Of a stretch of 64,000 nt of DNA, positions 20,491 to 22,681 are shown piece by piece. Position 1 is the first letter of the stretch. Every line of letters starts with the position of its first letter. A model generated the notes under the pieces. That model had not been told where the DNA came from and made no database searches. It was given only the letters and a program-made list of their open reading frames with translations. The stretch comes from Enterobacter phage EspM4VN. The stretch lies in the sequence record LC373201.2, one strand, 5' to 3'. Made by a program: the position numbers and the translations under genes.

Positions 20491-22681
20491 TATAGAATAT
20501 GCCCCGCTCAAGACGGGGTTCAAGATAGAAGACGTCAAATTGCGTATGGACCAAACGTTCATGCGCAAGCCGTCTGTGCGCGCCCCTCGTGTCCAGTTGA
20601 TGTTGACAGATGAGCAGGAAGATGAATTCGTCGAATGCGCGATGGATGCCCATTACTTCGCTGCCAACTACTACAAGATCACGACTATCGATAAAGGCTT
20701 CATCCTATTCGATATGCACGACTATCAGAAGCAGTTGTTCCATGACTTCCAGGATCACCGCTTCAACGCCGTTGTCCAGGCACGTCAGTCAGGTAAATGT
20801 GTGAAGGGTGACAGCATCGTCGAGGTCTACGACACAGTCAGCCAAGAAGAGTTTAAAGTCACCATCGAGGAGCTTCACAGCCGCTTCGAGGGACCGAACC
20901 ACGCCGAGCCACTGAACGCCTTTGGCAAACACGATAAGTTCGTAGACAGCCGCTTCGGCAAGCGTTATTTCGTTCGCTGTGATATAGGCTGGGTGCCTGT
21001 CATCGCCGCGCACAAGACCAAGCAGTATCAGGAATATGTTGTCGTCACTTCCAGCGGCCGTCGTATCAACGTGGCCGATGATCACATGTTCTTCAATCAG
21101 AATATGAAGGAAGTGTTTGCCAAAGATCTGGTTGCTGGTTCACAGCTGATGACCGAAGAAGGTCTAGAAGAAGTCGTTGAGGTATGGCAGACTGGTGAGA
21201 TGCACCACATGTATGACCTACAGGTGAAATCCAGCGACCAGCGCTACTACACCAACGGCTTCCTCAGTCATAACACGACTGTTGTGGCTGCGTTCCTTCT
21301 CTGGTATGCGATGTTCCACTCTGACAAAGAGATCGCGGTACTGGCGAACAAAGAGAAGCAGGCGATTGAAATCCTTGACCGTATTCGTAAGGCGTATCAG
21401 GATTTGCCATTCTTCATCCAGCAGGGCTGTGAGAAGTTCGGCTCCACGCTCATCGAATTCGAGAACGGCTCGAAGATATACGCCTATGCAACATCTTCTG
21501 ACTCCATCCGTGGTCGATCTGTATCGCTCCTGTATGTGGACGAAGTGGCGTTCATCGAAAACGACTTTGAATTCTGGGAGTCAACATTCCCTGCGATTGC
21601 ATCTGCAGAGACTTCACGTTGTATCCTGACCAGTACACCGAAAGGCCAGCGCGGGTTGTTCTACGACATCGTCACCAAGGCGAACCCAGAACATCCTCAG
21701 TACAACGACTTCAATCTCACAGAGGTTCCATGGTATCGTGTGCCAACATACACCAAGGATCCAAACTGGGAATCCAAGCAGAGGGCGAAGCTGGGCGATG
21801 CACGTTTCGATCAGGAATTTGGCATCAAGTTCCGTGGGTCGGTCGGTTCACTTATCCCGGCCAAGTGCCTGGACAAGATGACCTCGAAGCTGTATCAGGA
21901 GCCGAACGAGTTCACCAAGATCTATCACGACTACGATCCGAAGCGAATCTATATGGGTATCGCAGATACAGGCAAGGGCGTCGAGGGGGATTATTCTGTG
22001 CTGACCATTATCGACATCACAGACTATCCTCACAAGATCGCAGCCAAGTATCGAAACAACACGATACCTCCAATGATGTATGCGTACACAATCGCCGATA
22101 TGGGCGAGAAGTATGGGACGTGTCCAATGTTGGTAGAAACCAACAACGACGTGGGTGGACAGGTAATCACAATTCTATATCAGGAAATTGAATATCCAGA
22201 GATCATCTTCACCACAACAGATGCGAAGGGTACTGGTAAGCGAATCGGCGGTAGGCGGCCTGAACCTGGTATCAACACCAACAAGAAGGTGCGCACAAAC
22301 GGCTGTGCCAACCTGAAAGCCCTGATCGAAAGGGAGATGCTGGTTGTTGACGATCAAGACACGATAGATGAACTCAGTACATTCGTATGGACTGGGACAA
22401 GGTATGAAGCCGATGATGGTTGTCATGATGACTGTGTAATGCCTCTTGTGCTGTATGCATGGGCGGTGAAACAAGAATGGTTTAGTGACCTCACCAATTC
22501 CAGTATCTCAGTCGACATGAGAGGCCGCTTGTCTGCGATGGAAGAATCGCAGATGATGCCTTTCGGTGGTGTGTTGTCGGCTCCTGATCCGTTCTCTGTG
22601 GAGAGTGTGCCAGGATTTGGTGGCGTGCAGGTTTATGACGAACGTTCTGGCATGTCCATGGAAGAATGGCTGAGACGGTGA
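20471..22681 (+). CDS. terL: terminase large subunit (T4 gp17 homologue) interrupted by an in-frame mini-intein in the Walker-A motif
   Basis: ARQSGK|[intein]|TTVVAAFLLW reconstitutes the T4 gp17 P-loop SRQLGKTTVVAIFLAHF. Downstream regions align with gp17 (KEIAVLANKEKQAIEILDRIRKAYQDLP ... GSKIYAYATSSDSIRGRSVSLLYVDEVAFI). The nuclease-domain region is also conserved. The start is taken at ATG 20471; GTG 20456 is also possible. Confidence 0.9.
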   Translation: MAYQKRDIEYAPLKTGFKIEDVKLRMDQTFMRKPSVRAPRVQLMLTDEQEDEFVECAMDAHYFAANYYKITTIDKGFILFDMHDYQKQLFHDFQDHRFNAVVQARQSGKCVKGDSIVEVYDTVSQEEFKVTIEELHSRFEGPNHAEPLNAFGKHDKFVDSRFGKRYFVRCDIGWVPVIAAHKTKQYQEYVVVTSSGRRINVADDHMFFNQNMKEVFAKDLVAGSQLMTEEGLEEVVEVWQTGEMHHMYDLQVKSSDQRYYTNGFLSHNTTVVAAFLLWYAMFHSDKEIAVLANKEKQAIEILDRIRKAYQDLPFFIQQGCEKFGSTLIEFENGSKIYAYATSSDSIRGRSVSLLYVDEVAFIENDFEFWESTFPAIASAETSRCILTSTPKGQRGLFYDIVTKANPEHPQYNDFNLTEVPWYRVPTYTKDPNWESKQRAKLGDARFDQEFGIKFRGSVGSLIPAKCLDKMTSKLYQEPNEFTKIYHDYDPKRIYMGIADTGKGVEGDYSVLTIIDITDYPHKIAAKYRNNTIPPMMYAYTIADMGEKYGTCPMLVETNNDVGGQVITILYQEIEYPEIIFTTTDAKGTGKRIGGRRPEPGINTNKKVRTNGCANLKALIEREMLVVDDQDTIDELSTFVWTGTRYEADDGCHDDCVMPLVLYAWAVKQEWFSDLTNSSISVDMRGRLSAMEESQMMPFGGVLSAPDPFSVESVPGFGGVQVYDERSGMSMEEWLRR
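20798..21274 (+). mobile_element. mini-intein (159 aa, no homing-endonuclease domain) inserted between Lys and Thr of the terminase P-loop
   Basis: It begins with Cys (CVKGDSIVEV, block A). It contains the block-B-like NVADDHMFF and ends YDLQVKSSDQRYYTNGFLSHN (block F/G, terminal His-Asn), followed by Thr (+1). Removing it restores a contiguous Walker-A motif. Confidence 0.85.

Follow-up and report, generated by a model that had tools for sequence, protein, structure and literature searches.

The window analyzed here, the whole 64,000-nucleotide stretch from Enterobacter phage EspM4VN (LC373201.2), carries a large terminase precursor gene, terL, on the forward strand at positions 20456 to 22681 (an open reading frame of 741 amino acids, intein included). 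Its assignment in the original prediction to the T4 gp17 type was borne out by Pfam matches to Terminase_6N at residues 274-457 (E = 1.7e-16) and Terminase_6C at residues 503-660, by PHROG 2 (E = 1e-55), and by alignment of the spliced protein to T4 gp17 structures (3ezk and 3cpe; E = 2e-72). The encoded protein is 97% identical to the TerL of Agtrevirus and Limestonevirus phages, and the best nucleotide identity of the window as a whole was 93.5%, to Dickeya phage RC-2014. A gp16-like small terminase gene, terS (19789 to 20490, forward strand; Pfam DNA_Packaging, E = 4e-6), directly overlaps the start of terL, and no homing-endonuclease gene stands between the two. The window contained neither a second TerL nor a second intein of the same family. 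Translation of terL probably starts at the ATG at 20471 rather than at 20456: AAGGTG lies 7 nt upstream of it, and the resulting length of 736 amino acids is that annotated in relatives. Counted from this start, the intein comprises residues 110-268; codon numbers below are counted from 20456.

Reading of the sequence confirmed an in-frame insert that begins with Cys and ends with His-Asn followed by Thr. The N-extein (20456 to 20797, forward strand) ends in the first half of the Walker A motif, ...QARQSGK, with Lys as residue -1. The insert follows at 20798 to 21274 on the same strand and is exactly 477 nt long (159 in-frame codons): codon 115 (20798-20800) is TGT (Cys), codons 272-273 (21269-21274) are CAT AAC (His-Asn), and codon 274 (21275-21277) is ACG (Thr). 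From this Thr+1, the C-extein (21275 to 22678, forward strand) supplies the remainder of the ATPase together with the nuclease domain, and it aligns with gp17 from K|TT onward. The Walker A motif is thus split as ARQSGK|TTVV, between Lys and Thr as predicted, and the Thr of Walker A is also the predicted splice nucleophile. Among phage large terminases, Walker A is a textbook hot-spot for inteins.

Deletion of the insert joins ...VVQARQSGK to TTVVAAFLLWYAMF. That removal recreates a gp17-like P-loop was upheld by two comparisons. The spliced protein aligns with gp17 without a gap across the junction (arqsgkttvvaafllwyamf in spliced TerL, srqlgkttvvaiflahfvcf in gp17), and the same motif is found in relatives that lack the intein. 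The extein identity of these relatives is 72-85% and their gene order is the same; they read ARQSGKTTVVAAFLLWYA, and at the insertion site exactly ARQSGKTTVVAAFLLW. Against two such intein-less alleles (L002 and L003), blastn returned an exact 477-nt presence/absence difference.

The modeled fold of the insert is that of an intein. An AF2 model (pLDDT 95.6, pTM 0.88) comprises an all-beta single HINT domain with two short helices (residues 23-29 and 36-43) and no extra domain. A Foldseek search of the PDB returned 68 matches at E ≤ 1e-3, the best 50 of which were HINT-fold splicing domains and nearly all inteins, the exceptions among those 50 being three BIL2 chains and one hedgehog autoprocessing domain. 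Leading the list were VidaL (E = 2e-11, TM-score 0.83, probability 1.00) and NpuDnaB (E = 7.8e-9), and TM-scores against solved mini-inteins, normalized to the latter, were 0.79-0.83. Curated intein HMMs of Pfam and NCBIfam were top-ranked and mutually consistent, but all scored below their cut-offs: Pfam Intein_splicing (PF14890) at E = 4e-8 and 33.7 bits against 35.8, TIGR01445 at 19.0 against 24.5, and TIGR01443 (intein_Cterm, insert residues 139-159) at 13.3 against 15.6. Membership of the intein family therefore rested on structure and on a family profile built from 15 members, which matched VidaL (2.7e-12), gp41-1 (3.6e-12), and CatC (7.8e-11). PHROGs held no family for the insert alone, and neither Pfam nor PHROG detected an endonuclease within it; with the whole chain of 159 residues folding as one HINT domain, the proposal of a mini-intein free of a homing endonuclease stands. 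Together, the Foldseek and profile E values for VidaL and the exact 477-nt indel place the identity of the insert far beyond chance.

Conservation was scored on an alignment of 30 sequences, drawn from a family in which 33 homologous inteins were found at the same site. The motifs named in the original prediction (CVKGDSIVEV, NVADDHMFF, and YDLQVKSSDQRYYTNGFLSHN) are all present, and the residues needed for splicing are intact. Block A (CVKGDSIVEVYDT; 20798 to 20836, forward strand as are all blocks) opens with Cys1, the N-terminal nucleophile, which is invariant in sequences down to 28% identity. Block B (INVADDHMFF; 21065 to 21094) carries the catalytic His96, and A93, D94, and H96 are all invariant. 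The canonical TxxH motif of this block is only half matched, as His96 is kept while Ala93 occupies the position where Thr is usual. The replacement of Thr by Ala is probably tolerated, as the profile alignment shows an identical Ala-x-x-His (cAfnH) in VidaL. Block F (HMYDLQVKSSDQRYYTNG; 21206 to 21259) contains Asp140 and the invariant residues M138, D140, and T152, and block G (FLSHN; 21260 to 21274) ends in the penultimate His158 and terminal Asn159, with L156, S157, H158, and N159 all invariant. Both blocks align to those of CatC, VidaL, and gp41-1. In all 33 intein-bearing homologues, which reside in diverged TerLs, RQxGK immediately precedes Cys1, giving a site of the form RQxGK|C...SHN|T/S, with Thr or Ser after HN in the family members examined. 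As a nucleophile, Thr at +1 is in general weaker than Cys or Ser. No relative was seen to carry a non-intein insertion here; each has either a homologous intein or none, in which case it reads ARQSGKTTVV. Neither refuting condition given with the original prediction thus holds.

We therefore regard 20798 to 21274 as very probably a contiguous, cis-splicing class 1 mini-intein in the P-loop of a gp17-type TerL, in a phage of the Ackermannviridae near Limestonevirus and Agtrevirus. By the standard class 1 pathway, the HINT domain would fold within the ~85-kDa precursor, and Cys1, aided by block B His96, would carry out an N-S acyl shift at the Lys(-1)-Cys1 bond. Thr+1 would then attack the thioester to give a branched intermediate, and Asn159 would cyclize with the help of His158 and block F Asp140, releasing the 18-kDa intein. 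A final O-N shift would leave a normal Lys-Thr peptide bond, rebuilding ARQSGKTT and yielding an active TerL of ~66 kDa. From the sequence, the precursor is calculated at 85.1 kDa, spliced TerL at 66.7 kDa, and the intein at 18.4 kDa. Unspliced TerL should be inactive, because a domain of 159 residues parts the two halves of the ATP-binding loop, so that DNA packaging presumably needs splicing. Phages carrying this terL are cultured and viable. The intein presumably splices; we found no published evidence of splicing for any Ackermannviridae TerL in the searchable literature.

About 280-295 phage records, covering essentially all cultured Ackermannviridae, carry the intein. A word-indexed protein search with the insert by itself returned just 2 proteins; the family, which numbers ~740 members, became visible with a full-length TerL query and an exhaustive search of representatives. 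Intein length ranges from 150 to 183 amino acids across the family, and the variation maps to a variable loop (about intein residues 30-46; 20885 to 20935, forward strand) that contains two short helices in the model. Longer versions of 443-451 amino acids (P0082 and P0113) have a Ser/Arg/Gln-rich insertion of ~290 amino acids in the N-terminal variable loop. We rejected this insertion as a homing endonuclease, since it does not lie between blocks B and F and Pfam finds none in it. A candidate tRNA-Asp(atc) called by ARAGORN on the opposite strand within the intein (20879-20966) was also discarded: Rfam gave nothing at E ≤ 10, and its folding energy equals that of shuffled sequence (z = 0.06).

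The intein appears to have been inherited vertically with terL. Its GC content (51.6%) is similar to that of the exteins (50.0%) and of the window (50.7%), nucleotide identity shows no break at its boundaries, and relative to LIMEstone1, whose intein copy is 99.4% identical to that in the window, dS is 0.37 in the intein and 0.40 in the extein. A recent horizontal arrival is thus unsupported. Selection on the element is strongly purifying, with intein dN/dS of 0.007-0.06 at dS of 0.27-0.43, similar to the extein values of 0.03-0.04. Such selection would keep the intein intact because a phage unable to splice it would not survive. In a neighbor-joining extein tree, drawn without support values, alleles with and without the intein are intermingled.

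Retention of an intein by essentially a whole family of phages, under strong purifying selection and with no homing endonuclease, could suggest that it is more than a passenger. Under such a hypothesis it would act as a conditional switch that times activation of the terminase, its rate of splicing responding to redox state, temperature, metal ions, or assembly of TerL. A role of this kind would explain fixation across the family without an endonuclease, and a possible regulatory role of P-loop inteins is discussed by Kelley et al. 2016 (PMC5050341). However, purifying selection is equally expected of a passenger in an essential catalytic loop, where a non-splicing mutant is lethal; the intein-less alleles interleaved in the extein tree imply that the intein is dispensable; and no second Cys lies near the junction to suggest a disulfide trap. 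We consider a switch very unlikely, and find it just as doubtful that an endonuclease-free intein was kept as a post-translational timer or sensor rather than merely because precise loss is rare. Patchy presence in the same tree might alternatively reflect continuing mobility in trans. Limestonevirus phages have a homing-endonuclease gene immediately upstream of terL (~880 nt, between terS and terL in LIMEstone1 and RC-2014), and a free-standing endonuclease of this F-LimIX type could cut an intein-less terL, whereupon repair would insert a copy of the intein ("collaborative homing"). Relative to SW16-7, dS is 0.27 in the intein but 0.58 in the extein, a difference consistent with such transfer. 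Yet the overlap of terS and terL leaves no such gene in the window, intein-keeping relatives in Agtrevirus and Kuttervirus likewise lack it, nucleotide identity is unbroken at the intein boundaries, and the matched dS against LIMEstone1 fits vertical descent. Mobility in trans is quite improbable.

Several Dickeya phage records instead name the product a "pretoxin HINT domain protein," which raises the alternative of a HINT-like domain, of pretoxin or BIL type, that has degenerated or does not splice and is either retained in mature TerL or only self-cleaving. Pfam PT-HINT (PF07591) does match the insert (E = 3e-4), the intein HMMs score under their curated cut-offs, and BIL2 and hedgehog domains occur among the lower structural matches. 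At 21.4 bits against a cut-off of 27.7, though, the PT-HINT match is weaker than that of Intein_splicing, and the solved structures nearest by profile (VidaL, gp41-1, and CatC) are without exception inteins rather than toxin HINTs. All residues for full splicing are invariant, the +1 nucleophile included, and what lies downstream is the ATPase and nuclease of TerL, with no toxin domain. A retained domain of 159 amino acids would, moreover, part Lys from Thr in the P-loop, and the related Cat-TerL is listed as trans-splicing (PMC11766414). We therefore judge a non-splicing domain highly improbable and retain the cis-splicing mini-intein as the preferred reading of this locus.

The intein itself is already known, and its recognition here, though correct, adds little new biology: it is annotated in close relatives with the same boundaries. 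The TerL inteins of Kuttervirus and other Ackermannviridae (Salmonella phages Marshall, Maynard, and Mooltan and Klebsiella phage Magnus) are the same element, with 159 amino acids, the same Lys|Thr site, and 73-77% amino acid identity. In GenBank, the homologous 477 nt of Mooltan are a mat_peptide named "intein," a 159-amino-acid "intein" is annotated in Marshall and Maynard, and relatives bear the product name "intein-containing terminase large subunit precursor." The intein is also mentioned in two genome announcements (PMC3853055, 2013; PMC6763660, 2019), and it is absent from the text of a 2024 review of Ackermannviridae. In contrast, records of the nearest relatives, in Limestonevirus and Agtrevirus, name the product simply "terminase large subunit" or mislabel it "pretoxin HINT domain protein," wordings that we attribute to curated intein HMMs scoring just under threshold. 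Correcting the many records of this kind is one practical use of the present analysis. Another concerns phylogeny, for TerL is a common marker and the intein should come out before trees are built.

Mycobacteriophages offer a further case of inteins that interrupt Walker A in a large terminase. The Lys|Thr position, occupied by the mycobacteriophage intein TerL1-a, is termed the "classic" P-loop site by Kelley et al. 2016 (mBio, PMC5050341); in their reporter, five mycobacteriophage TerL inteins spliced, and they argued, as we do, that the active site forms only once splicing has occurred. The likeness of TerL1-a and TerL1-b to the intein in the window is one of site. Their host proteins belong to the Terminase_1 family, whereas that in the window is of the Terminase_6 (gp17) type, and mycobacteriophage Terminase_6 proteins have their intein in the C-motif rather than the P-loop (PMC5050341). 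TerL1-b and TerL1-c also carry active homing endonucleases (PMC5050341), unlike the intein in the window, which has no endonuclease.

Kinship by sequence links the window to the solved split inteins VidaL, Cat (a consensus intein), and gp41-1, which fall in the same sequence family as the intein in the window at an identity of ~17-22% and share with it block F/G (MYDL.V....H.YYTNGILSHN) and a block B of the form C-A/S-x-x-H. VidaL, Cat, and gp41-1, like AceL-TerL and GOS-TerL, are split, whereas the intein in the window occupies one uninterrupted frame and is predicted to act in cis. AceL-TerL, GOS-TerL, and Cat-TerL are listed as trans-splicing and with Cys+1 (PMC11766414), in contrast to Thr+1 in the window. 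Given the listed Cys+1, they may occupy another TerL site. Natural split versions do exist at the same TerL P-loop site in metagenomic relatives, with the split point in the variable loop. L010, for example, has a gene ending in ...CRQSGK|CVDGETIIKIRNKK..., followed by one that begins MSSLLSESVDRKFIES...GILSHN|TTVVGAF. In a weaker version of the argument from retention, then, the enterobacterial phages of the Ackermannviridae may harbor a contiguous and ancestor-like counterpart of those atypically split TerL inteins that serve protein engineering. If so, they would provide a tractable in vivo system for how such inteins split, a prospect that is useful rather than surprising. For experiment, the locus offers a predicted cis-splicing relative of VidaL, Cat, and gp41-1 in phages that are easily grown and engineered.

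The large terminase gene terL of EspM4VN (20456..22681, plus strand, 741 aa) carries the in-frame insertion claimed by the original prediction, as could be read directly from the DNA. Codon 115 (20798-20800) is TGT (Cys), codons 272-273 (21269-21274) are CAT AAC (His-Asn), and the next codon is ACG (Thr). The insert (20798-21274) measures exactly 477 nt (159 codons), and all motifs quoted in the prediction were found in the translation. Deletion of the insert fuses ...NAVVQARQSGK with TTVVAAFLLWYAMF; computed masses are 85.1 kDa for the precursor, 66.7 kDa for the spliced protein, and 18.4 kDa for the insert. 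By homology, the terL product is a T4 gp17-type large terminase (TerL), with Pfam matches to Terminase_6N (E = 1.7e-16) and Terminase_6C and a match to PHROG 2 ("terminase large subunit"; E = 1e-55). The predicted resemblance to the T4 gp17 P-loop held up: insert-free TerL matched gp17 structures 3ezk/3cpe (E = 2e-72), with a gap-free alignment across the junction (arqsgkttvvaafllwyamf in the window, srqlgkttvvaiflahfvcf in gp17). The true start of terL is probably ATG 20471 rather than ATG 20456, because AAGGTG lies 7 nt upstream of 20471 and TerL of annotated relatives is 736 aa long, the same length as from that codon. In front of ATG 20456, GAAGG abuts directly, a poor ribosome-binding context. 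With the start at 20471, intein residues 115-273 become 110-268. The small terminase gene terS (19789..20490, plus strand) lies directly upstream and overlaps terL (20456-20490), and the neighboring genes gp14, gp15, gp16, gp17, gp18, gp19, and gp20 follow a T4-like order. Nucleotide identity (93.5% to Dickeya phage RC-2014 [Limestonevirus] and ~91% to Shigella phage Ag3 [Agtrevirus]) places the window in an Ackermannviridae phage.

The intein HMM search partly bore out the prediction. Matches to the insert were obtained with Pfam Intein_splicing (33.7 bits, E = 4e-8; cutoff, 35.8 bits), the N-terminal region model TIGR01445 (19.0 bits; cutoff, 24.5), and the C-terminal region model TIGR01443 (13.3 bits; cutoff, 15.6), and these curated models point in the right direction, although all three fall below cutoff. 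No PHROG family was matched by the insert alone, and a word-indexed protein search with it returned only 2 proteins. Among the many homologues retrieved with full-length TerL, 33 are interrupted at exactly this position, RQxGK preceding an insert of the form C...SHN and T/S following it, with insert lengths of 150 to 183 aa plus two of 443 to 451 aa. In a 30-sequence alignment with identity down to 28%, repeated on the inserts alone, the invariant insert residues were C1, K47, F48, G64, T74, A93, D94, H96, M138, D140, T152, L156, S157, H158, and N159. These include all class 1 splicing residues (the Cys1 nucleophile, block B His, block F Asp, penultimate His, and terminal Asn), and every family member has Thr or Ser at +1. 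One departure from the canonical pattern is an Ala at the block B "Thr" position (A-D-D-H), which is invariant family-wide and also present in the structurally solved intein VidaL (c-A-f-n-H). An AlphaFold2 model of the insert, built from the 30-sequence family alignment, is a single, mostly beta domain (mean pLDDT, 95.6; pTM, 0.88). Foldseek against the PDB gave 68 matches at E of ≤1e-3. The 50 best were HINT-fold splicing domains, inteins in nearly every case, alongside three BIL2 chains and a hedgehog autoprocessing domain. The best match was VidaL (E = 2e-11; TM, 0.83), followed by NpuDnaB, gp41-1, Mtu RecA, Ssp DnaB, and others; a 15-member family profile likewise matched VidaL (2.7e-12), gp41-1 (3.6e-12), and CatC (7.8e-11). 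Neither the model nor the Foldseek comparison contained an extra domain, endonuclease or other, and the label "mini-intein" is therefore correct. The splicing residues proved to be in place, and the insertion at this site in related terminases is itself the intein. Together, we are highly confident that the insert is a plain mini-intein in the TerL P-loop.

Splicing is expected to follow the standard class 1 pathway: an N-S acyl shift at Lys(-1)-Cys1, trans-esterification onto Thr+1, cyclization of Asn159, and an O-N shift that would create the Lys-Thr bond of GKT. Since the Walker A Lys and Thr would be held apart in the precursor by the folded 159-residue domain, splicing should be required for ATP binding and packaging. 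Kelley et al. (PMC5050341) made the same active-site argument for mycobacteriophage TerL inteins, five of which splice in a reporter, and the position between Lys and Thr is described there as the "classic" P-loop insertion. That the intein has a regulatory role on top of this seems improbable to us, and we favor the plain mini-intein.

The TerL intein is already known and annotated in relatives. By tblastn, the insert was found in 319 phage records, 280 at near full length, from phages of Salmonella, Klebsiella, Escherichia, Dickeya, Serratia, and Shigella, a set that amounts essentially to the Ackermannviridae. Coverage of the precursor reaches at least 80% in 295 records, which must contain the insert, since such coverage would otherwise be impossible. 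Phage Mooltan (MH688040) is annotated with an "intein-containing terminase large subunit precursor" and a 477-nt mat_peptide "intein" at homologous coordinates, and a 159-aa protein named "intein" is on record at NCBI for phages Maynard and Marshall. In the 2013 announcement of the Marshall genome (PMC3853055), its large terminase is said to be "interrupted by an intein," and the 2019 Magnus announcement (PMC6763660) says likewise. Dickeya phage records KM209228, KM209320, KJ716335, and KM209271 label the intein-containing TerL "pretoxin HINT domain protein," a misannotation apparently stemming from a subthreshold PT-HINT match.

Alleles without the intein also exist, as the comparison proposed with the prediction brought out. 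Five metagenomic TerLs (P0015-P0019; 575 to 581 aa; 72 to 85% extein identity) read ARQSGKTTVVAAFLLWYA at the junction. Two of their contigs share the gene order gp13, gp14, gp15, terS, terL, sheath, tube, portal, and blastn of the window against these two breaks at about 20797 and 21264-21271, a clean 477-nt difference. Because such alleles interleave with intein-bearing ones in an extein tree (neighbor-joining, without support values), repeated precise loss or gain is suggested. Against LIMEstone1, dN/dS is 0.007 in the intein (dS, 0.37) and 0.035 in the exteins (dS, 0.40); against SW16-7, the values are 0.059 (dS, 0.27) and 0.030 (dS, 0.58). At greater distances, the intein retains 75 to 79% amino acid identity versus 86 to 88% for the exteins, about twice as much change. 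GC content is 51.6% in the intein, 50.0% in the exteins, and 50.7% in the window, and there is no nucleotide identity step at the intein boundaries. Taken together, dN/dS, dS, GC, and the lack of an identity step describe what would be an old resident, coinherited with terL and kept splicing capable. Neither another TerL nor another intein of this family is encoded in the window.

Within the intein, ARAGORN called an 88-nt tRNA-Asp with the unusual anticodon ATC (20879-20966, minus strand), which we reject as a false positive: Rfam gave no tRNA match there at E of ≤10, and folding energy is at the level of shuffled sequence (z = 0.06). Elsewhere, RC-2014 has free-standing homing endonuclease genes at four places, all lacking a counterpart in the window: an F-LimIX-type gene in the terS/terL gap (window 20484-20510), a 1.8-kb gene in the sheath/tube gap (24654-24671), a NUMOD3 protein gene after the major capsid gene (about 30576-30840), and an HNH gene splitting the helicase gene (38962-39009), which is one 452-aa ORF in the window (37953..39311). 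Conversely, a ~930-nt stretch (31243-32173) missing from RC-2014 holds a 285-aa ORF (31318..32175, plus strand) matching PHROG 757 ("DNA methyltransferase"; E = 2e-69) and no Pfam family. The tail spike/tail fiber region (2678-11941) matches RC-2014 in short pieces (65 to 91% identity) or not at all, with flanks at 92 to 94%; such divergence is expected of Ackermannviridae host range modules and is a hint that the host differs.

When 1.84 billion representative proteins were searched exhaustively, 743 relatives of the intein were returned at E of ≤1e-3, including members between GK and T of other P-loop ATPases. Many metagenomic T4-like TerLs (P0123-P0267) have 2 to 4 family members inserted at additional sites; in others from that set, split versions break the coding sequence into several genes, one protein ending in intein residues 1-30 and its successor beginning with residues ~40-159. 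Two metagenomic TerLs (P0082 and P0113; 983 and 1010 aa) share this intein and its insertion site, with the intein enlarged to 443 to 451 aa by a ~290-aa Ser/Arg/Gln/Asn-rich insertion. That insertion lies in the N-terminal variable loop rather than between blocks B and F, where an endonuclease would normally be found. Pfam detected no family and no endonuclease in it, and an intervening element that is read through is one possible explanation. In four other TerLs (P0077 [Vibrio phage VP-1, 738 aa], P0052, P0076, and P0109), a GIY-YIG endonuclease domain (residues 506-589 in P0077) follows the ATPase domain and no Terminase_6C nuclease domain is detectable, suggesting that a homing endonuclease gene interrupts terL or is fused to it. 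Many of the 743 relatives start, at their own residue 2-12, at intein residues about 36-47 and run through residue 159 into the TerL C-extein. At one metagenomic locus (L010, 1924-4288), the upstream gene ends in ...CRQSGK followed by CVDGETIIKIRNKK...KKG and a stop, and the next gene starts with MSSLLSESVDRKFIES...GILSHN followed by TTVVGAFLTW. Judged from these reading frames, this is a naturally, atypically split version at the same P-loop site, divided in the variable loop (about residues 30-46 of the window intein), and it fits the published atypical split TerL inteins AceL-TerL, GOS-TerL, and Cat-TerL (PMC11766414).
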